IMG/VR virus record: IMGVR_UViG_3300035501_000527
Coordinates: 1,583-65,582 of that record
Reading direction: 5' to 3' (one strand)
DNA from: a virus
Lineage: Duplodnaviria; Caudoviricetes
Length of the DNA stretch: 64,000 nucleotides
Made by a program: the position numbers and the translations under genes. This document shows, piece by piece, positions 24,549 to 39,936 of this stretch (its first letter is position 1; each line of letters begins with the position of its first letter). The notes beneath the pieces were generated by a model. The model saw nothing but the letters and a program-made list of their open reading frames with translations, had not been told where the DNA came from and did not search any database.

Positions 24549-24613
24549 CAAAATAAATCAGAAAGGAAAAAGATAGGTAGCTACTAAGGACATGTCACTT
24601 TCTGGTAAATAAT

Positions 24614-25156
24614 TTGGGACTAAATGTAGGATATTTAACATCTGATAAAGAAGATAATGAGCTTTATTCTCCCTACTATATTGTAGACCACATCATCAAA
24701 TATCTCCCAAAAGATAAAATTATATGGTGTTCATTTGATGAAGAATGGAGTGCTTTTTATCAAAGATTGAAAGAAGAAGGATTTAATGTAGTCAGAAGTT
24801 CGTTACAAGAAGGGCAGGATTTCTTCAAGTATGAACCTGATAAGTGGGATATTATCGTGTCTAATCCACCATTTTCAATTAAAGACAAGGTATTAGAACG
24901 TTTATATTCATTTAATAAGCCATTTGCAATTCTACTTCCACTAAACTCGCTGCAAGGTAAGACAAGATATAAATATTTTAAACAAGGTATTCAGATACTT
25001 AGTTTTGATGCGAGAGTCTGCTATCACGACAAAGAACATATGGATAGTGTAGTAAAAGGAAGCCCGTTCGCAACAGCTTATTTTTGTAGAAATTTACTTC
25101 CGAAAGATTTGATTGTGGAAAAGTTAATTACATATGAAAGACCGTTGATTAGATAG
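24614..25156 (+). CDS. Short adenine-specific DNA methyltransferase
   Basis: IWCSFD, SNPPFS motifs. Confidence 0.8.
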   Translation: MGLNVGYLTSDKEDNELYSPYYIVDHIIKYLPKDKIIWCSFDEEWSAFYQRLKEEGFNVVRSSLQEGQDFFKYEPDKWDIIVSNPPFSIKDKVLERLYSFNKPFAILLPLNSLQGKTRYKYFKQGIQILSFDARVCYHDKEHMDSVVKGSPFATAYFCRNLLPKDLIVEKLITYERPLIR

Positions 25157-28844: not shown

Positions 28845-28979
28845 TATTTGAAAAAATATTACTTTTATTCAGGTAGTTGCAAATGCCTGGATAAAAGCAG
28901 CTTTTACAAAATTAAAAGAAAGGAAATTAACAAGTAACACCGGTTAAAATGATATGCATATCCTTGAGGATCAAGGAAT

Positions 28980-30533
28980 TTGAACAAAAATACAAATAAT
29001 AATAAAAGTAATAATTTAACGAAATTAAAAGTAATTGAACTGTGTAGTGGAATTGGCGCACAGATTAAAGGAATTAAAAATACGAATTTATTTGATTCAG
29101 AAGTTGTAGCAACAGCAGATTTAGATAAAGAAGTGGTAGTCAGTTATGCGGCAATTCATTGTGGTTTAACAAATGATTTGATTAACAGTTATGAAAATTA
29201 TCCATCTAAAGAACAGATGGTAGAAGAACTTACAAAGAAAAGACTCGGATATGATTTTAAAAACGATAAACCTTATGATTGGGAAAAATTAGCAAAGAAA
29301 AAAGATAAAACAAAAGGTGTTGAGAAGTATTGGTTAGCAGATAAACTATCACATAATCTTGGAGATATGATAAAAATTGAAGAATTACCAGATTGTGATT
29401 TTCTATCTTACTCCTGTCCTTGTACCGACATCAGCATTTCCGGTAAACAAGAAGGACTAAAATGGACTTGTCAGGATTGTGGTCACGAATATGATCCGTC
29501 TACATTAGATGTAGAAACAAGATATACTTGCCCAAATTGCGGAAGTAATAATATAAAGTCAACTCGTTCAGGATTATTATATGAGGTTGAACGTTTGCTT
29601 GTAAAAGCAAAAGAGAATGGTAATCTGCCTAAATATTTACTTATGGAAAATGTTGACGCTTTAGTTTCAAAGAAATACATAGAGAGTTTTAATGATTGGA
29701 TTGAGAGATTAAGTAATCTTGGATATGATTCATATTATCAAACAATCAATGCGAAAAATACAGGTATTCCCCAAAATCGTAATAGGATCTTTTGCATATC
29801 AATTCTAAAAGATATTGATTCAAAACAGTTTGAATTTCCACACCCATTTGATACAGGCATTCGATTAAAGGATATGTTGGAAGATGATGAGGAAGTTTTA
29901 GACAAATATTTCCTATCGGATGAAGTACAAAGAAGGTTACAAATCACTGATGAAAAGTTTGAAAAGAATGTAGTTGGCACAACGCTTGGTAAAGAAAATC
30001 ATAGAATTGGAACGAGAGATCTTGTTTATTGGAAAGAAGGAATAATTGGTTGTCTTACATCAACAGACTATAAACAGCCACATCAGATATTAGAAAATCC
30101 TAATGAAATAAAAAAGATTGATAATAAGATTTCAGCTAATGAGCCAATACATATTGCTGATTTGAATAGCGAGAAATATCAAAGAATGCATGAGATTTCA
30201 AGAAGAGTATATAGTGAGGATGGTATTGCTCCTGCTATGCACACTTGTAATGGTGGCAACACAGAGCCAAAGATTGAAAAAGATAATCTAAGGATTGTTA
30301 GGAAGCTTACACCAAAAGAGGCTCATAGGCTTATGGGATTTGATGATATTGATTATGAGAATTGTAAAGCAGTTGGAATGTCTGATACTCAAGGATATAA
30401 ACAAGCGGGTAATTCGATTGTCACAAATTGCATATCTCTATTAATTGAACATTTATATAAAGCTCAGTATGACAATACATATATTTGTACAGATGAAAAG
30501 ATGGTAAATTTTCAGATTCCACAAGCGGAGTAG
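28980..30533 (+). CDS. C5-cytosine DNA methyltransferase with Zn-ribbon insertion
   Basis: ELCSGIG (I), SCPC (IV), MENV (VI), QNRNR (VIII), RKLTPKE (IX), QAGNSI (X). Confidence 0.92.
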   Translation: MNKNTNNNKSNNLTKLKVIELCSGIGAQIKGIKNTNLFDSEVVATADLDKEVVVSYAAIHCGLTNDLINSYENYPSKEQMVEELTKKRLGYDFKNDKPYDWEKLAKKKDKTKGVEKYWLADKLSHNLGDMIKIEELPDCDFLSYSCPCTDISISGKQEGLKWTCQDCGHEYDPSTLDVETRYTCPNCGSNNIKSTRSGLLYEVERLLVKAKENGNLPKYLLMENVDALVSKKYIESFNDWIERLSNLGYDSYYQTINAKNTGIPQNRNRIFCISILKDIDSKQFEFPHPFDTGIRLKDMLEDDEEVLDKYFLSDEVQRRLQITDEKFEKNVVGTTLGKENHRIGTRDLVYWKEGIIGCLTSTDYKQPHQILENPNEIKKIDNKISANEPIHIADLNSEKYQRMHEISRRVYSEDGIAPAMHTCNGGNTEPKIEKDNLRIVRKLTPKEAHRLMGFDDIDYENCKAVGMSDTQGYKQAGNSIVTNCISLLIEHLYKAQYDNTYICTDEKMVNFQIPQAE

Positions 30534-30994: not shown

Positions 30995-31177
30995 TAAAGA
31001 AACATATGTAGAAAGAAAGTATAGAGAGTTCTATGAGAAGAATGGTTATATCCCAAAATATTTTGTCCCATATAACTGCTTGGAAGTATCTGATTATGCC
31101 CTACATTGACAACAGAATCAAATACAAGCTTTGGAAAATCCGGTACTGTACTAATTGTTGTGAATAACGATAAATAA
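30984..31177 (+). pseudogene. Further TRD-like module ORF, frameshifted at CCC 31099-31101
   Basis: Adding one C gives DYAPTLTTESNTSFGKSGTVLI, ending TAA 31175-31177. Confidence 0.55.
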
Positions 31178-31180
31178 AAT

Positions 31181-31258
31181 ACTATATATAGTGGTTGTAA
31201 TGTTACAATACCACTATATATAGAAATATTTTGGGAATAAAACTTCAATTCTATTCGG
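31181..31258 (+). repeat. Composite site A
   Basis: ACTATATATAGT-N20-ACTATATATAGA-N12-ATAAAA-N6-TTCTAT. Confidence 0.8.
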
Positions 31259-31560: not shown

Positions 31561-31721
31561 GTAGCTTGAAGAAAGTAGATATTGTAAGAAAAGAGAAAAA
31601 TGAATTAGAGAAACATAACACGATATGATATGAAATTTTTATAAGGGATTTTTTAGAGAACATATAAGAAAGGATAATTAGTAGCTGGCTTTAAAGGTTG
31701 CAACCGCTTTGGTACTAATTA

Positions 31722-32828
31722 TTGAAAATTGCAATTATTGATGCAGATTTAATAGGAAGAAATAAGCATAGATTTCCTAATCTCGTTTCTATGAAATTAT
31801 CAGGATACTACAAAGAGTTAGGAAGTGATGTTGAATTAAAAACAGATTATGAGAATCTATCAGATTATGACAAAGTATTCATATCTAAAGTATTCACAGA
31901 CACACCAATAGACGAAACCATATTAAATCTTCCAAACGTAGAATATGGTGGTACAGGTTTCTTTTATGATAAAGCACCAAAATTACCAGATGAAGTAGAA
32001 CATCATATGCCGGATTATCACCTATATGATGATTGGGTAAATGATAAGTTAGCGAATGGTAGTAAGAAGAATGATTTTAAATATTACACGGATTATTCGA
32101 TTGGGTTACTGAGTAGAGGATGCTTCCGTCAGTGTCAGTTTTGTGTAAACAGGAATTATAAAAGAGTTTCAGTACATAGTCCATTAGACGAATTTGTTGA
32201 TAAATCAAGAAAGAAAATATGCTTATTAGATGATAATTTCTTAGGTTGCCCTAATTGGAAAGAAATGTTGCTTGAATTGCAAGCCACTGGCAAACCATTT
32301 CAATTTAAGCAAGGGCTTGATGAGCGTATATTAACAGATGAAAAATGTGAGTTGTTATTTAAGAGTAAGTATGATGGTGATTATATCTTCGCATTTGATA
32401 ATATTGCCGATTATGACCTGATTGAAAAGAAGTTACAGTTACTAAGAAAGTATACAGATAAAGTTCCTAAATTTTATGTCTTTTGTGGTTTTGATAGAGA
32501 AGATAAATGGGATAGTGATTTTTGGAAACAAGATTTATGGGATTTATGGAAACGCATCGAATTGCTTATGAAATATCATTGTTTACCATACATAATGAGG
32601 TTTGCAAAGTATGAAGAATCTCCATATAGAGGAACTTATATCAATTTGGCTGCGTGGTGTAACCAACCATCTGCTTTTAAGAAAAAGTCATATAGAGAGT
32701 TTGTGAAATATCAGCAATCAAGACATCCCAAAGAATGTTCAGAAACAAGATATTTGAAACAAATTGAACAGGATATGCCTGATTTAGCAGAAAAATATTT
32801 TGATATGAAGTTTATGGATTTTAATTAA
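31722..32828 (+). CDS. Radical SAM-domain protein
   Basis: RGCFRQCQFC (CX3CX2C), LDDNF motif. Confidence 0.8.
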   Translation: MKIAIIDADLIGRNKHRFPNLVSMKLSGYYKELGSDVELKTDYENLSDYDKVFISKVFTDTPIDETILNLPNVEYGGTGFFYDKAPKLPDEVEHHMPDYHLYDDWVNDKLANGSKKNDFKYYTDYSIGLLSRGCFRQCQFCVNRNYKRVSVHSPLDEFVDKSRKKICLLDDNFLGCPNWKEMLLELQATGKPFQFKQGLDERILTDEKCELLFKSKYDGDYIFAFDNIADYDLIEKKLQLLRKYTDKVPKFYVFCGFDREDKWDSDFWKQDLWDLWKRIELLMKYHCLPYIMRFAKYEESPYRGTYINLAAWCNQPSAFKKKSYREFVKYQQSRHPKECSETRYLKQIEQDMPDLAEKYFDMKFMDFN

Positions 32829-33124: not shown

Positions 33125-34192
33125 ATGATTAGAAAAGTTGATAAGAAAAACAAATTTATATCCGTATTCAATCCAGATACAGGATTTTATGTGAGAACTG
33201 GAGTTATTAAAGATGGTAAAGATACCGGCGAAGATCCTTTTATGACTTCATTTCCTGAATTACTCGATGTGGGAATTATGCAAACATGTGTATGTAGTCA
33301 TAAATGTAATGTTGATTGCTACCAGAAAGCAATTGATAGAACTGGAAATAATATGTCTGTAAAAGATTTTAAAAGTATCTTGGAACAAGGTAAGGGTAAA
33401 TTATTTCAGGTAGCTCTTGGTGGAGCTGGTGATGTAGATACACATGAAAATTTTGAAGATATTGTAAGACTTTGCAGAGAATATAATATTGTTCCAAACT
33501 TTACAACAAGTGGAATCATGATGACAAAAGAAAAAGCTGAGATATGCAAGAAGTATTGCGGTGCAGTTGCGGTGTCAGAACATTTTGCTGATTATACGGA
33601 TAAGGCTTTAGATTTACTTTTAAATGCGGGTGTTAAGACTAATATTCACTATGTATTAAGTAATAAAAGCATTGATACTGCTATTGATAGATTGAAAAAC
33701 AATAGCTTTAAAAGAGGGATTAATGCAGTTGTTTTTCTTCTGTATAAACCTGTAGGACTTGGTATTGAAGAAAATATGTTGAAAGCGAATGATCCGAGAG
33801 TAAAAGAATTCTTTAGTTTGATTGATAAAGGAAATTATCATCACAAAATTGGATTTGATAGCTGCTCTTGTTCAGGAATAGTTAATTATGCAAGTAATAT
33901 AAATCTTGACACTCTTGATTTCTGTGAAGGAGCAAGATATTCAGCTTACATTGATGCAAATATGAATATGATGCCTTGTTCTTTTGCTAATCAGGATAGT
34001 AACTGGTTTGTTAGTTTAAGAGAACATACAATCAAGGAAGCGTGGGATAGTGATATTTTTGAAAAATTTAGATATTCGTTAAGAAATTCATGTAATGGAT
34101 GCATCAATAGATTAAACTGTGCTGGTGGGTGTCCACTTGTTAATCAGATTACATTGTGTAATAGGAAAGAAAGAGACTTTAAGACAAGATAA
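33125..34192 (+). CDS. Radical SAM protein with SPASM domain
   Basis: CSHKCNVDC cluster, ALGGAG, TTSG, MPCSF, CNGC-X5-CAGGC. Confidence 0.85.
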   Translation: MIRKVDKKNKFISVFNPDTGFYVRTGVIKDGKDTGEDPFMTSFPELLDVGIMQTCVCSHKCNVDCYQKAIDRTGNNMSVKDFKSILEQGKGKLFQVALGGAGDVDTHENFEDIVRLCREYNIVPNFTTSGIMMTKEKAEICKKYCGAVAVSEHFADYTDKALDLLLNAGVKTNIHYVLSNKSIDTAIDRLKNNSFKRGINAVVFLLYKPVGLGIEENMLKANDPRVKEFFSLIDKGNYHHKIGFDSCSCSGIVNYASNINLDTLDFCEGARYSAYIDANMNMMPCSFANQDSNWFVSLREHTIKEAWDSDIFEKFRYSLRNSCNGCINRLNCAGGCPLVNQITLCNRKERDFKTR

Positions 34193-34194
34193 GC

Positions 34195-34596
34195 GTGGTG
34201 AGAATTACGAAGATTAGATTTGATTTTGTGACTAATTCATCAAGTAGTAGTTTTATTATTGAAAAAGACCAATTATCATACGGACAATTGTTAAAATATT
34301 TATTACAGATTGCAAATAAAGAAGCATCTTATTGGGACGATGAATCCGATGATAAAACATATAAATGGAAAGACGTAGAAAAGAATTGTGTTGCTGGTAG
34401 ATATAACATTATTGAAGCAACGCCGGAAAATCCGCATACAGAATATGATGAATTTGGATATGGGGATTCAGAGGAAAAGATTTATACAAATCATTATATT
34501 ATAGACAATGGAAGTTGTGGAAGATACGATTGGGATGTTGTTAGAGAAGTATTAGATAAGCATGGTATTAAATGGAGTTATGGGTATTGCGATTAA
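34195..34596 (+). CDS. TNSSSSS-motif protein 1
   Basis: KIRFDFVTNSSSSSF near N-terminus. Confidence 0.8.
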   Translation: MVRITKIRFDFVTNSSSSSFIIEKDQLSYGQLLKYLLQIANKEASYWDDESDDKTYKWKDVEKNCVAGRYNIIEATPENPHTEYDEFGYGDSEEKIYTNHYIIDNGSCGRYDWDVVREVLDKHGIKWSYGYCD

Positions 34597-34608
34597 GGAG
34601 GATATGTA

Positions 34609-35385
34609 GTGAAGATTCGGAATGATTACGTTACTAATAGTTCAAGTAGCAGCTTTATTATCGGTAAGAAGGATTCTGAATCAGTTACAATTGATTCGGT
34701 TTTCCAGACAATAAAAACATTCTATAAAGAGTACCTAGATGCAAGAAACGCTGTTATCCAATATATTAAAGACAATCCTAAACTTGGTTTGGTTTATCAG
34801 TTATCAGAAGATGGAGCATATTATCATTTTAAATTTATTAATGGTAACAGGTTTGATAATAAGAATACAGCAATAGAGCGATCTATTGAAAGAGATTTTG
34901 GTATTTCTACATGGGATTATTTTTATAAAGATTATGATTGGTTAGAATGCGATACATATAACGATTATGAAAATTATTGGATTGCTAAAATGAATAATGC
35001 TAATAATAAGTGGATTCATGCGCCGTTTACCATAGCAGATTTTCTCGAAGAAAAAGAAATTAGATGGTTACATTGGGGATGTAATGAAAAAGGCATTCAT
35101 AAAGTCAACAGTAAATCTAATACTCTTGGTTGGTATTACAAATATGTAGAAGAAGCATTTGAAAATATGGAATCATGTGATAAGTGTAATTATTCAGATT
35201 GGTGTGACAGAGAAGAATGTGAACAACAAAAGATTTTTCTAAAAGGACAAGATATACCAGAAGATAAAGCATGTTTGTGGTTATTAGGAAGAGTTTGTAT
35301 TCATTCAGAATGCGGATATATTCCTGATTATGTAGTAACGAGATTAGCGAATATATCAGAATATTCGTGCAATCATATGGGATAA
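34609..35385 (+). CDS. TNSSSSS-motif protein 2
   Basis: MKIRNDYVTNSSSSSF. Confidence 0.85.
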   Translation: MKIRNDYVTNSSSSSFIIGKKDSESVTIDSVFQTIKTFYKEYLDARNAVIQYIKDNPKLGLVYQLSEDGAYYHFKFINGNRFDNKNTAIERSIERDFGISTWDYFYKDYDWLECDTYNDYENYWIAKMNNANNKWIHAPFTIADFLEEKEIRWLHWGCNEKGIHKVNSKSNTLGWYYKYVEEAFENMESCDKCNYSDWCDREECEQQKIFLKGQDIPEDKACLWLLGRVCIHSECGYIPDYVVTRLANISEYSCNHMG

Positions 35386-35402
35386 AGAAAGGATGAATTA
35401 TC

Positions 35403-35834
35403 GTGAAAATTAGAAGCGACTACGTGACAAATTCAAGCAGCAGTAGTTTTGTTATTGCTTATAGAAATCTTCCAGAATTTGACGAAGATACACTGACCAA
35501 ATATCCATTTTTGAAAAATTACGGAGAACTAATAGAGAAAGTATTATTTACAGAAGGTGATAATGAAACCGATGAGGGTATCGTATCAAGAACAAAAGAA
35601 GAGTATGATAAGAACTTTATTTCTGTATATGGGTGGAAAGATAATCAATCTGTAGAAGATATTTTAGAAGATGATGATTGGCTCACGAATACATATAACA
35701 AATCTATTGAATATATTGAAAAAGGATTCAATATTTTAGATAAGAGAGTGGATTATAACGATACATATTGCTCAAATATGATTCGTGAATTAGCAAAAGA
35801 TAAAGATAATTTTGTAATATTGGAGGATGAATAA
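35403..35834 (+). CDS. TNSSSSS-motif protein 3
   Basis: MKIRSDYVTNSSSSSF. Confidence 0.85.
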   Translation: MKIRSDYVTNSSSSSFVIAYRNLPEFDEDTLTKYPFLKNYGELIEKVLFTEGDNETDEGIVSRTKEEYDKNFISVYGWKDNQSVEDILEDDDWLTNTYNKSIEYIEKGFNILDKRVDYNDTYCSNMIRELAKDKDNFVILEDE

Positions 35835-36428
35835 TTGAAGATAAGAACTGATTTTGTCACGAATAGTAGTAGCTCTAGTTTTGTATGTGAAATCTGTGGA
35901 CGAACTGAAAGCGGATTTGATGCTAGTTTAAGTGATTTCGATATGATGGAATGTATTAATGGTCATACATTTTGTTGTGATGAAGCGTTAGAAAGACCAT
36001 CAAAAAAAGAACTTATTAAAATGATTTTAGAAAACGAATGGAATAAAGATGCATGGGATTCTAAAACAAAGTATAGAAGAGATTTTTCGGAAGAAGAATT
36101 ACTTGTTATGGAAGAAGATGTTTTGTTTGACAAGTTCTGTTCTGAATGTGGATATTATGAAGTTCCTGAATGCGTTTGCCCTATCTGCCAGTTTATTGAA
36201 TATTCCGAATATGACCTTAGTGCTTATTTGTTAAAAGAGTATGGGGTATCAAGAGATGAAGTTTTCGCAGAAGTGAAAAAGCTTAATAAGAGAAGAAGAA
36301 AGTTGTATGAGAATGAATATATTACATATGTTTGTAAGAAATTTGACTTAAATCCAACTGAAATTGTTGCAGCTTGGAAAGAAAAGTTTGGTACATACAA
36401 TAAATTTAGAGAGTGGTTGGAAAATTAG
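35835..36428 (+). CDS. TNSSSSS-motif protein 4 with Zn-finger-like Cys clusters
   Basis: MKIRTDFVTNSSSSSFVCEIC; CPIC. Confidence 0.85.
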   Translation: MKIRTDFVTNSSSSSFVCEICGRTESGFDASLSDFDMMECINGHTFCCDEALERPSKKELIKMILENEWNKDAWDSKTKYRRDFSEEELLVMEEDVLFDKFCSECGYYEVPECVCPICQFIEYSEYDLSAYLLKEYGVSRDEVFAEVKKLNKRRRKLYENEYITYVCKKFDLNPTEIVAAWKEKFGTYNKFREWLEN

Positions 36429-36439
36429 AAAAGAGACAT

Positions 36440-36516
36440 ACTGTATATAGTGCTTTACAAATGTTAAAACACTATATATAGATTTAAAATCCAGATAAAA
36501 TTTTTGTTTTATTTGG
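36440..36516 (+). repeat. Composite site B
   Basis: ACTGTATATAGT-N19-ACTATATATAGA-N12-ATAAAA-N6-TTTTAT. Confidence 0.8.
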
Positions 36517-36529
36517 AAAGTTACGATGA

Positions 36530-36712
36530 TTAAAAATTTAATTCTATTCCATCAGAAATAGATAATTTATAAAATTTATGTATATTGCCTTGCTTGTCAA
36601 AACCTTTAATAATCAGTCTATCTAGCCAAAAATAACCTTCTTTAAGGTTTGACAAAGTATTACCACTTGTATCTCTCATAAACTGGATACATTCATTAAA
36701 AATTGGATTCAC
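36530..36712 (-). CDS. Inverted 5' end (59 codons) of the PAPS-reductase-like gene
   Basis: GTG start with AGAAAGG leader; joins 36818 onward in frame when the segment is re-inverted. Confidence 0.75.
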   Translation of the reverse strand: MNPIFNECIQFMRDTSGNTLSNLKEGYFWLDRLIIKGFDKQGNIHKFYKLSISDGIELNF

Positions 36713-36817
36713 TCACAACCTGAGTGTAATGTACATTACGATTTAACTAGTATTATCCTTACCTTTCTTTACTTTTTGTCGTTTGCAAACTTTAAAAATT
36801 CTTGAATAGAATTAAAT
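36536..36817. other. Inverted (possibly invertible) DNA segment bounded by 14-bp inverted repeats
   Basis: ATTTAATTCTATTC 36536-36549 and GAATAGAATTAAAT 36804-36817. Confidence 0.8.
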
Positions 36818-36823
36818 ATTGAT

Positions 36824-37942
36824 GTGCCAGAAAAGGGCTATGACAATATTGAAGATGTAGATTTAGCAAGTTGGAACGACTTAGTAAAAATGCAGGAACG
36901 GCATTTGTATCAGATAGAGAAGAAATCAAAAGGGATTATTAAGAAGAAAATGCGAAAGTTTGATGAATATATACCATTAGTTCCTGTAAGTATGGGTAAA
37001 GATTCTATGGTTACTTGCCATTTGGTAAGAGAATGTTATCCAGATACCAAAGCGATTTTTAATAATACAACTTTGGATTGTGCTGATACATATAGAATGG
37101 CAAAACAGTTTCCTAATTGTGAAATGATGACACCAAAGCAAGGTTTCTATCAATACATAAAAGAACAGAACGTAGTGTTTAATAGAATATCTCGTGGTTG
37201 TTGCCGGATATTTAAGGTTGGTGAAATGGTCAATCAGTTGGATCATAATACTCCATATTTGATGTTTATGGGTATGAGAAATGAAGAAAGTAATACTAGG
37301 AGTGGTTATGGTGATGAATGGATTAACGAAACTGAATGGGGAGATACTTGTTGGCAAGGAATTTTACCAATTAGAAAATGGTCTGAATTAGATATTTGGC
37401 TTTATACATTTTGGAAGAATATAGAAATAAATACTAAGTACAGAAAAGGCTATTCAAGAGTTGGTTGTGCTATTGCTTGCCCTTACTATACCAAATCAAC
37501 ATGGATTCTTGATAAATATTGGTATCCAACAATGCGAAAGAGATGGGAAGATATTTTAAGAGAAGATTTTATTAGTAATAAGAAGTGGATTGTCATGAAC
37601 TGTACAATTAATGAATATATCAACTTAGCTTGGAATGGCGGTGTATTCAGGCAAGAGCCAACAGAAGAAGTCATAAAAGAATATGCTGAATATAACGGTT
37701 TAGATAAAACAGTGGCAAAGCAATATTTCAATAAGTATTGTGCTAATGGCTGCAAAACAAATTCTGGTAAACAGAAGAAAATAAAAGAGAAGAATGTATT
37801 AGCAATGAATATGAAATATCATGGCAGAAATATTAACAAGTTTTATTGCAAAAAGTGCCTGATGAAGATGTTGGATATGGATGAAGATAAGTGGAATGCT
37901 AATATTGAGACATTCAAACAACAGGGTTGTGCTTTGTTCTAA
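36824..37942 (+). CDS. PAPS-reductase-family protein; 5'-truncated in this orientation
   Basis: SMGKDS PP-loop, GMRNEES..R, SRVGCAIACP; C-terminal CKKC; no RBS before GTG 36824. Confidence 0.85.
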   Translation: MPEKGYDNIEDVDLASWNDLVKMQERHLYQIEKKSKGIIKKKMRKFDEYIPLVPVSMGKDSMVTCHLVRECYPDTKAIFNNTTLDCADTYRMAKQFPNCEMMTPKQGFYQYIKEQNVVFNRISRGCCRIFKVGEMVNQLDHNTPYLMFMGMRNEESNTRSGYGDEWINETEWGDTCWQGILPIRKWSELDIWLYTFWKNIEINTKYRKGYSRVGCAIACPYYTKSTWILDKYWYPTMRKRWEDILREDFISNKKWIVMNCTINEYINLAWNGGVFRQEPTEEVIKEYAEYNGLDKTVAKQYFNKYCANGCKTNSGKQKKIKEKNVLAMNMKYHGRNINKFYCKKCLMKMLDMDEDKWNANIETFKQQGCALF

Positions 37943-37950
37943 AAATGAAT

Positions 37951-38027
37951 ACTATATATAGTAGTTTATAAATGCTCAAACACAATATGTTGATTAGATT
38001 TCCCGATAAAACCTTTCTTCTATTTGG
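37951..38027 (+). repeat. Composite site C
   Basis: ACTATATATAGT-N19-ACAATATGTTGA-N12-ATAAAA-N6-TTCTAT. Confidence 0.8.
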
Positions 38028-38048
38028 AAAATTAACAGGAGGAAACTA

Positions 38049-38402
38049 ATGACAAAAAGAGAGAATGTATTAACAAGAGTACCATTCCAAACAAGATTTT
38101 CTGGGATGTACGTTTTGGATAAATCAAAAGATTGGGTACTTAATACCATAAAAATGTGTGGTATAGAAGATAATTGTATAGATGGAAGGTCTATAAATTT
38201 TGATATATCTTCAATAAACAACAGAATTATTATTCGTCCACTAGAAAAATATGATGATTATTTTTTGGTTGCAGAGTATCTTTGTTTTACTTCTGTTGTT
38301 GAAATTAAATCAGATGATTATATAGATGTTATTAAACAAAGTAATGGCGATTATCTATTTACTATGAAAAAAGGTGACTTAAATGATAACCAACAAGCGT
38401 GA
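38049..38402 (+). CDS. Hypothetical protein
   Basis: ORF track; AGGAGG RBS. Confidence 0.75.
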   Translation: MTKRENVLTRVPFQTRFSGMYVLDKSKDWVLNTIKMCGIEDNCIDGRSINFDISSINNRIIIRPLEKYDDYFLVAEYLCFTSVVEIKSDDYIDVIKQSNGDYLFTMKKGDLNDNQQA

Positions 38403-38568
38403 ACAGAAAATCTGTGACAAATACTCTGCCTACGATGAAACAGGTCATGTTTAGTGCTTTGAATGTCCGTTGAGTAAAGGTAATTGGAGACAGCATGACT
38501 TTCGGTGTAAGGCGAATACTCATTACGATAGGCATACAGGAGAATGGGAATACGATGAAAAGAGGTGA
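38383..38568 (+). pseudogene. Small Cys-containing gene with in-frame TAG
   Basis: MITNKREQKICDKYSAYDETGHV*CFECPLSKG...; TAG at 38452-38454; AAGGTGA RBS. Confidence 0.55.
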
Positions 38569-39160: not shown

Positions 39161-39240
39161 TTTAAAATTTACAAGAAAGGATACAAGGCGTTGCAACCGT
39201 AAGAGATATCTGTCCTTTTTGGTAAAAGAAAATAAAATAT

Positions 39241-39936
39241 ATGGGTTCAAAGAGCAGGATAGTTAATAACATTCTGCCAATAATTCAGAAAAGATTAGAA
39301 GATTATAATATTAAAACGTACATCGAACCATTTTGCGGCGGCTGTAACGTAATTGATAAAGTGGTTTGTGATAAGAAAATTGCATCAGATAATAACAAAT
39401 ACCTAATAGAGTTGTTCAAAAATATAGACAAAATAGATTTACTTCCAGAGATTGCTTCTTATGAGCATTATTGTGAATGTAGAGATGCTTATAACAATTC
39501 TGATTTCTCAAATTTTCCCAAATGGTACATTGGTATGATTGGATTTCTCGCTAGTTATTCCGGCAGGTTCTATGACGGAGGGTTTAATGGAACTGGTTAT
39601 TTAGAAGGAAGAACAAAAAGAAATTATTATGATGAAGCAAAAAGAAATTTAGCTGCACAAGTTAAAGATTTAGATGGCATTGATTTTGTTTATGGCGATT
39701 ATTTTGACCTATATAAAGATAATGAGGATTGCTTATTCTACTGTGATATTCCGTATAAAGATACAAAGCAGTATAATACTTCAAGAAATTTCGATTATGA
39801 AAAATTTTGGGATTGGGCTGAAAGAATGTCAGAGAAGAATATAGTATTAGTTAGCGAATATCAAGCACCTAAACAATGGGAATGTATATGGGAGAAACCA
39901 TTATTAAAGACAATGAATCATGGGGAAAAATGTTAA
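39241..39936 (+). CDS. Dam-like (D12 class) N6-adenine methyltransferase; C-terminal frameshift likely
   Basis: (IKY)MGSK, EPFCGG, YCDIPY; alternative-frame tail NSNEKLFEIRE ends 39970. Confidence 0.85.
   Translation: MGSKSRIVNNILPIIQKRLEDYNIKTYIEPFCGGCNVIDKVVCDKKIASDNNKYLIELFKNIDKIDLLPEIASYEHYCECRDAYNNSDFSNFPKWYIGMIGFLASYSGRFYDGGFNGTGYLEGRTKRNYYDEAKRNLAAQVKDLDGIDFVYGDYFDLYKDNEDCLFYCDIPYKDTKQYNTSRNFDYEKFWDWAERMSEKNIVLVSEYQAPKQWECIWEKPLLKTMNHGEKC

Follow-up and report, generated by a model that had tools for sequence, protein, structure and literature searches.

A PAPS-reductase-like phage gene apparently split and left OFF by a DNA inversion that recurs among its relatives

The DNA analysed here, referred to as the window, comprises 64,000 of the 65,582 bases of the IMG/VR virus record IMGVR_UViG_3300035501_000527 (CheckV completeness, 37%), and nearly all of its long open reading frames (ORFs) lie on the plus strand. 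Between positions 36,530 and 37,942, a PAPS-reductase-like gene lies in two pieces on opposite strands. The larger piece, the gene body, matches PF01507 (PAPS_reduct; 3.7e-26, 92.6 bits against a gathering cut-off of 22.5). Its plus-strand ORF (36824-37942, 372 amino acids) has no Shine-Dalgarno-like sequence ahead of it, and the upstream frame is shut by a TGA at 36803-36805. The smaller piece, a minus-strand ORF of 60 amino acids, consists of 59 genuine N-terminal residues and a foreign F, with a stop codon supplied by the outer flank of the left inverted repeat (IRL). The right inverted repeat (IRR) is the exact reverse complement of IRL, and the repeat reaches 17 nt if one mismatch is allowed (36533-36549 / 36804-36820). 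The restored gene starts 163 bp downstream of IRL, and IRR falls at codons 55-59, that is, one repeat outside the gene and the other inside it, the arrangement of the partial intergenic inverton in the PhaVa classes.

Flipping 36550-36803 in silico fuses the two pieces into a single frame of 433 amino acids reading ...SISDGIELNIDVPEKGYDNIE..., in which ...SISDGIELN runs directly into IDVPEKGYDNIE.... Exactly this junction is carried by the homologue P0001, encoded on JGI contig L001, whose body is 98% identical. The 60-residue piece agrees with P0001 at 46 of 48 residues and with a second homologue, P0006, at 43 of 59. At the DNA level, L001 aligns with the window in two blocks, 1230 bp forward and 285 bp reversed, and with the flipped window in a single block of 1527 bp at 96% identity; the ON contig and the OFF window are about 96-97% identical. 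Most of the 960 database homologues are 429-441 amino acids long. N-terminal truncation at the junction is seen in 29 of the best 120 homologue clusters, and several of the truncated proteins start ...LSLPFF..., which is the reverse-strand reading of the conserved leader. A first-pass annotation made from the letters alone had described perfect 14-bp inverted repeats with 254 bp between them, a minus-strand leader with 59 codons in that space, a body without a ribosome-binding site, a 5' piece ending after 60 amino acids and a flip that restores an in-frame 433-residue protein, and all of this is borne out. It had also suggested looking for homologues with an uninterrupted gene, and P0001 and L001 provide that joined form.

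Among perfect inverted repeats of the window whose arms are 60-450 bp apart, none is longer than the 14-bp pair, and the 14-mer ATTTAATTCTATTC has no copies there beyond the two arms. Markov shuffles yield 0.4 inverted repeats of at least 14 bp per window in this spacer range, so the repeat by itself is not decisive; the coding join is what decides.

We gathered related loci from IMG/VR and GTDB genomes (81 loci), from ENA and Logan (4) and from metagenomes (80). They belong to 100-220 kb phages and prophages of Lachnospiraceae, many of the viral records being classed as proviruses, and the named hosts (Eubacterium segne, Lactonifactor, Lachnospiraceae MD308 and Butyribacter) are all members of this family. 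The phage of the window is itself a large one, with gut-type Clostridia as its hosts. In the viral and genome collections, the N-terminal piece lies on the opposite strand in 17 of about 80 loci, among them the isolate genomes of Eubacterium segne BX4 and Lactonifactor sp. BIOML-A5. The independent metagenome set shows 5 inverted loci out of 64. On a maximum-likelihood tree of the gene body from 75 loci, orientation must have changed at least 6 times, each change being required by branches with good support. Loci of opposite orientation can be nearly the same DNA: the inverted L034 and the ON locus L031 have 100% identical DNA for 3994 bp beyond the switch, L022 and L068 agree at 99.8%, and for the reversed block the identity is 99.4-99.7%. 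Both orientations in otherwise identical DNA across genomes are the mark of an inverton. The first-pass annotation had named a misassembly or a fixed one-off inversion as outcomes fatal to its reading; because both orientations recur in the comparative data, the locus is better described as a recurrent switch. The region has no match in a phage GenBank collection, and the IRR junction searched as an exact pattern was found in neither viral nor metagenome contigs.

Inversion depends on the repeat. The inverted orientation is found in 19 of the 44 loci whose corresponding position bears a repeat of 9 bp or longer, and in none of the 94 loci that lack one (Fisher p = 1.4e-11, for loci that are not independent and without correction for relatedness). 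Every inverted locus bears an inverted repeat of 9-15 bp, or of 21 nt with 2 mismatches in L174, with the right arm at homologous codons. The repeats fall into at least 7 classes, 4-5 of which are seen inverted, and include ATTTAATTCTATTC in the window and (AATC)CAATCTTTCA, AAACGAAACTTTCAT, GTAACGTTTC, CAACGCTTTCA, TCGCTGTTTCAA and ACTTAATTTTA in other lineages. The right arm varies with the codons that it overlaps, and the left arm, about 250-285 bp upstream, matches the right arm in each lineage. This covariation of the two arms shows that the capacity to invert is under selection. Nine identical bp are enough for inversion in L008, and 10 in L048; such lengths fit a site-specific crossover of 6-8 bp and are far too short for homology-driven exchange. 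The bodies of the inverted genes stay open in 19 of 19 loci. The metagenome relative L174 is inverted at 1271-1494 between a different, longer repeat and with a shorter segment, of 182 bp, so the geometry of the switch varies. The features of the window are collected in Table 1.

Table 1. Positions of the switch, of related elements in the window and of the recombinase gene just outside it
Feature	Position	Strand	Description
Left inverted repeat (IRL), ATTTAATTCTATTC	36536-36549	+	Perfect 14 bp
Right inverted repeat (IRR), GAATAGAATTAAAT	36804-36817	+	Inside the coding sequence; encodes (G)IELN of the intact protein
Putative invertible segment, OFF as sequenced	36550-36803	-	Leader, GTG start at 36712, codons 1 to ~54
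Leader within the segment	36713-36803	-	91 nt; AGAAAGG at 36762-36768; palindrome TAATGTACATTA; small hairpin at the start codon
Orphaned 5' piece, 60-aa ORF	36530-36712	-	GTG start; ends ...SISDGIELNF, then stop
Gene body	36804-37942	+	PP-loop motif SMGKDS, Cys-rich C-terminal part; no leader, no start
Fixed upstream intergenic element	36438-36534	+	Palindromic hairpin box, then ATAAAA-N6-TTTTAT-TTGGAAA; outside the invertible segment
Second inverton, ON as sequenced	28857-29013	+	Perfect 13-bp repeat TATTACTTTTATT (28857-28869 / 29001-29013), 131 bp between
Shared leaders	24560-24614, 28917-28980, 31667-31722, 36712-36768 (minus strand), 39174-39241		8-12 bp perfect palindrome in between
ATARAA-N6-TTYTAT sites, examples among 26	1390, 22591, 27109, 31237, 36495, 38006, 40324, 45768, 61139		
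Tyrosine recombinase gene, 5'-truncated by the contig end	G000:C1:2-904	same strand	H-x-x-R and Y present

A similar arrangement stands before a C5 DNA methylase gene of the window (28980-30533). Its 131-bp segment carries an AGAAAGG leader (28917), the palindrome ATATGCATAT, a TTG start (28980) and the first 7 codons, with the arms at -183..-171 and -39..-27 from the ELCSGIGAQ motif. A single-protein search returned no loci for this methylase; an alignment-based search found 45 orthologous loci, 72-79% identical, which carry the repeat TATTTTTTTC(TT) at the same distances from ELCSGIGAQ. Six of the 41 classifiable loci are inverted, all six with a repeat of at least 10 bp, and the 17 loci with a repeat of 8 bp or less are all ON. 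ON/OFF pairs of the methylase locus are 99.8-99.9% identical. The orthologues thus bear out the second inverton, and the window would hold two switches, the PAPS-reductase-like gene being OFF and the methylase ON.

Two further genes of the relatives show the same design. Immediately after the PAPS-reductase-like gene, relatives have a second PF01507 gene (SGGKDS) that the window lacks, with an inverton at L034:4169-4323, seen by comparison with L043. Its 129-bp segment contains an AGAAAGG leader, the palindrome GATTGCGCAATC, an ATG and 5 codons, and the repeat is GAA[A/T]TAGTATTTT. For the PAPS-reductase-like gene and this second gene, respectively, L034 is OFF/ON, L043 ON/OFF and L031 ON/ON, which indicates that the two switches flip independently. 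A third inverton (L019:5653-5815 and L017:5812-5974, compared with L020, L030, L061 and L074) has a segment of about 140 bp with a leader of the same kind, a TTG start and the first codons (LTENNEKNN) of a PF00145 methylase. This methylase may be permuted, judging from a match that starts at profile position 57, and the lineages that carry its inverton have no repeat at the PAPS-reductase-like gene. A near-identical leader with near-identical first codons also heads orthologues of the window's methylase, whose bodies are unrelated, and the cassette therefore looks portable.

Leaders of this kind stand before five DNA-modification or radical-SAM genes of the window, with AGAAAGG 54-63 nt before starts that are mostly non-ATG. 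Their palindromes are, in coordinate order, GACATGTC, ATATGCATAT, GGTTGCAACC, TAATGTACATTA and GTTGCAAC. Repeats bracket only two of the five, those of the PAPS-reductase-like and C5 methylase genes, and single-sequence folding of these two leaders is unremarkable (z = 0.18 and -1.12). Another perfect 13-bp repeat, TCCCAAAATATTT (31051-31063 / 31224-31236), encloses 160 bp including a boundary hairpin box; its flip creates no convincing gene join, and it was rejected as a switch.

With respect to the enzyme that might turn the segments, the window contains neither a recombinase gene nor a gene of the IS110/Piv type, in agreement with the earlier statement that it holds no invertase. A truncated tyrosine recombinase gene (G000:C1:2-904) lies just outside, 680 bases before the window start and about 37 kb upstream of the switch, and matches Pfam weakly (43.9 bits summed). 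In some relatives, its orthologues (39-54% identity) precede the PAPS-reductase-like gene by about 30-37 kb on the same strand; in others, a comparable position is occupied by a different tyrosine recombinase. All 17 repeat-bearing genomes carry 2-5 tyrosine recombinases. Co-occurrence does not single out an invertase among them: one class, of about 346-368 amino acids, is present in 17 of 17 repeat-bearing genomes and also in 7 of 12 genomes without the repeat. Serine recombinases (PF00239) have no match in the 65.6-kb record, which is 37% complete, and 16 of 17 repeat-bearing relatives lack them, including several that are 100% complete; a serine-invertase system of the Hin/Gin/Cin/Pin type was therefore dismissed. 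A shufflon of the Rci type was likewise dismissed, because there is one segment with two arms, no alternative 3' or 5' cassette and a 14-mer that occurs twice only. The most likely agent would be a tyrosine recombinase that works from a distance and has its gene elsewhere in the phage; a host enzyme is possible.

We interpret the 254-bp segment as an inverton of the partial intergenic type, a reversible on/off DNA switch, with a probability of roughly 0.85. According to this interpretation, an enzyme would turn the segment round by conservative site-specific recombination between the two short inverted repeats. One orientation would encode the 433-residue enzyme of the PAPS-reductase fold. In the orientation as sequenced, the body would lack leader and start, the 5' piece would end after 60 residues and no active enzyme would be made. 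The switch would be reversible within a population, and single phage or prophage genomes would toggle individual DNA-modification activities independently of one another.

Several observations weigh against this interpretation. Reads with both orientations in one population were not seen in the only two public runs that a search returned, both from freshwater metagenomes, with 8% of words in each. Unitigs of these runs over the region are 151 nt long and 90-97% identical to the window; one of them (X2) is colinear over 36774-36925, across the OFF right junction, and was not counted, its 30 letters inside the segment falling below the 31-letter rule. A clade of 8 loci is uniformly inverted in the DNA sets, and its ON forms appear solely as proteins (P0026 and P0016). 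No relative has an invertase gene within 3-4 kb of the switch. Orthologues of the truncated tyrosine recombinase occur in 18 of 39 related genomes and are missing from complete genomes with inverted switches. Finally, the different switches have repeats without a clear consensus, an unusual situation if one sequence-specific recombinase serves them all.

Some of these observations would suit inversions that recur without being programmed by an enzyme, through replication template switching or a phage single-strand-annealing recombinase working on the repeats, followed by selection. An invertase gene is neither adjacent nor identified among the recombinases of the relatives, and the wide differences between the repeats of lineages and switches fit a requirement for homology alone. 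However, routes driven by homology need far more than the 9-11 identical bp seen in some inversions to be efficient, the match between the arms is preserved in different lineages at four genes, and the left arms have a fixed place ahead of a conserved leader. In addition, opposite orientations are found between 100%-identical flanks in several lineages, which implies high inversion rates, and we regard this explanation as unlikely. Independent one-way accidents by illegitimate recombination, each breaking the gene for good, would account for the single orientation of every assembly and for the uniformly inverted clade of 8 loci. Such accidents would hardly leave an orphaned 5' piece intact and 96% identical to its ON relative, or the body open in every inverted locus, and at least 6 of them would have had to fall at exactly the same codons. 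The covariation that maintains the repeat would not be selected by one-way loss either. Within the uniformly inverted clade itself, P0015 has a near-identical full-length counterpart in P0026 (370 of 377 residues), and we consider permanent breakage very improbable.

The inverted state could also make other products, namely an N-terminally truncated enzyme from an internal or read-through start, or a free 60-residue peptide. In some lineages, the inverted leader offers an in-frame ATG, derived from the palindrome ATGTACAT and fused to the body, from which gene callers predict proteins of 394-410 amino acids (P0015 and P0018), and the PP-loop domain lies wholly within the body. In the window, by contrast, this frame is shut (ATG TAC ATT ACG ATT TAA, then TGA at 36803), and no candidate start is preceded by a ribosome-binding sequence. 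The N-terminal 59 residues are strongly conserved (GYFWLD, GFD.QG..HKFY) and for that reason are probably needed. Alternative products therefore have a small chance of being the right account, slightly smaller than that of inversions without a dedicated enzyme. An assembly artefact would be favoured by the nature of the record, a single metagenome-derived viral contig. The 14-bp repeat is nevertheless shorter than assembler k-mers, and the same inverted arrangement occurs in isolate genomes and in assemblies from four independent sources. Since ENA, JGI, Logan and the NCBI isolates all show the inverted form, an artefact of one laboratory's pipeline is unlikely, and an artefact in this record is the least probable of the explanations considered. 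The interpretation as a reversible inverton is the one that we carry forward.

The first-pass annotation had further assigned both ends of the segment (TTAAAA-ATTTAA-TTCTAT and ATCAAT-ATTTAA-TTCTAT) to one family of boundary sites with identical 6-bp spacers, taken as a footprint of a cassette recombinase. The motif ATARAA-N6-TTYTAT is enriched about 3.5-fold in the window (26 sites against 7.5 expected, at up to one mismatch) and might bind a regulator, form a small hairpin or serve in recombination. All sites were reported on the plus strand, which is uninformative because the motif is nearly its own reverse complement. The assignment holds for the left end: the left arms of both switches in the window are one-mismatch instances, and the two left sites are identical at 14 of 22 positions (mean 6.9 +/- 2.1), both being instances of a general intergenic motif. 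It does not hold as well for the right end, which fits only at 2 mismatches and carries little weight, because matches at that level are only modestly above the shuffled expectation (110 against 83). Relatives, moreover, invert at the homologous place with repeats that are off the motif, such as CCAATCTTTCA, AAACGAAACTTTCAT and GTAACGTTTC. The spacers are indeed identical, but trivially so, since the spacer sits inside a perfect repeat. The assignment of both ends to boundary sites is thus not supported, and a link to the proposed cassette recombinase would be speculative.

The fixed upstream element recurs as a direct repeat of 75% identity at 37949-38045, before the next gene; its motif match is at 36495-36512. 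No Rfam family was found in 35500-38500, and a promoter and terminator scan performed no better than chance. In the related genomes G010 and G012, the sequence GTAACAAGAA precedes the left arms of two or three switches and is not enriched genome-wide.

The PP-loop motif SMGKDS of the switched gene is invariant in both family alignments. A structure model of the full-length homologue was poor overall (mean predicted local distance difference test score, pLDDT, 58) and at N-terminal residues 23-75 (below 50). The full-length homologue P0006 matches the BrxP model at 3.4e-30, its best match in the defence library, and phrog_424 at 1.2e-24; the full-length protein also matches archaeal PRK13795-type models and falls far under the CysH, APS-reductase and CysD cut-offs. 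An assimilatory PAPS/APS reductase (CysH) was rejected on scores of 64.1 bits against 154 (NF002537), 43.6 against 165 (TIGR00434) and 27.8 against 254 (TIGR02057). The gene was also rejected as BrxP of BREX type 4: the match covers just positions 89-360 of the 779 in the model, the PAPS-reductase part; the full-length architecture of about 780 residues with a DUF4007-type part is not found; and the gene is not beside brxC, brxZ or brxL. No ATPase partner of the BrxC, DndD or SspC type was seen next to it. In phosphorothioate DNA modification, sulphur is inserted by BrxP, DndC and SspD (PMC12914056). The phage protein has the PF01507 PP-loop domain in common with them, and differs from BrxP in its length (433 residues, against about 780). 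From family and context, it is probably a DNA-modifying enzyme of the BrxP/DndC-like kind, possibly with sulphur-inserting activity.

The neighbours of the gene comprise two radical-SAM genes, several small proteins with a common N-terminal tag and a Dam-like methylase. At 33125-36428, a radical-SAM/SPASM gene is followed by consecutive genes encoding 133-258 amino acids. Three of these (34609, 35403 and 35835) start with 16 near-identical residues, MKIR.DYVTNSSSSSF, and the genes with this start have no family match in Pfam, PHROGs or NCBIfam.

Small invertible segments in leader regions, with repeats of 9-21 bp, are known from the RecV switches of C. difficile (cwpV, flgB and cmr) and from fimS of E. 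coli, which is turned by FimB and FimE. RecV, a single far-encoded tyrosine recombinase, serves several switches with differing repeats. The segments of these systems carry promoters or terminators and no coding sequence, unlike the phage segment. Among phages, the Gin/G segment of Mu and the Cin/C segment of P1 are turned by serine invertases encoded by an adjacent gene and swap the C-termini of tail fibres. They resemble the present case as phage inversions that give mixed progeny as bet-hedging, and differ from it in that here the 65.6-kb record shows no serine recombinase, and the inversions act on DNA-modification genes with an ON/OFF result.

Surveys of bacteria have recorded partial intergenic and intragenic invertons in large numbers (PhaVa survey, PMC10028968, Chanin et al.; gene-altering programmed inversions, PMC9881135, Milman et al.). 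As in those cases, a short segment bounded by repeats lies over the end of a gene, and its flip truncates or restores the frame, giving two genotypes. The surveys, however, cover bacterial chromosomes, and their partial intergenic invertons are mostly long, shufflon-like domain swaps, whereas in the phage a leader, a start and the first codons form a small ON/OFF cassette, a design repeated on several DNA-modification genes; Milman et al. (PMC9881135) mention no PAPS-reductase gene. Inversion-driven epigenetic phase variation (ePV) is also known, from the ePV survey (PMC11741434). As in the epigenetic invertons or phasevarions of Huang et al. 2020 (cited in PMC11741434), inversion here would change the DNA-modification activity of a clone. 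The known cases mostly shuffle hsdS domains or methylase fragments of bacterial restriction-modification systems; in the phage, whole stand-alone enzymes would be switched on and off, including a PAPS-reductase-fold enzyme that is not a methylase. What is particular here is the combination of a phage setting, a target of the PAPS-reductase fold, the inversion of the leader together with the first codons, the use on several modification genes and the covarying arms.

A broader proposal, for and against which we see the odds as even, covers the family as a whole. Large temperate Lachnospiraceae phages would carry a portable invertible expression cassette before their DNA-modification genes, each copy with its own repeat pair, in combinatorial patterns and served by a recombinase whose site recognition is loose or structure-based. 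As part of the same proposal, the cassette would begin with a structured leader bearing AGAAAGG at a distance and would also include a palindrome, a start other than ATG and the opening 5-59 codons; its targets would be two PP-loop enzymes of the PAPS-reductase fold and two kinds of C5 methylase. If this were true, one phage lineage would release virions, or keep lysogens, with combinatorially different DNA-modification patterns.

The case adds a PAPS-reductase-fold enzyme to the phase-variable DNA-modification functions, and the family offers many natural ON/OFF pairs as well as cultured lysogens (Eubacterium segne BX4 and Lactonifactor sp. BIOML-A5). The host range of a phage depends on the modification of its DNA, which shields the phage from classical restriction and exposes it to modification-dependent (Type IV) nucleases. 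The benefit of the switch may lie in bet-hedging, since some hosts restrict unmodified DNA and others modified DNA. Independent, heritable switches on individual enzymes would give a phage population a standing mixture of epigenetic states with which to meet the defences of its gut hosts. In a prophage, they would also vary the modification pattern of the lysogen's chromosome.

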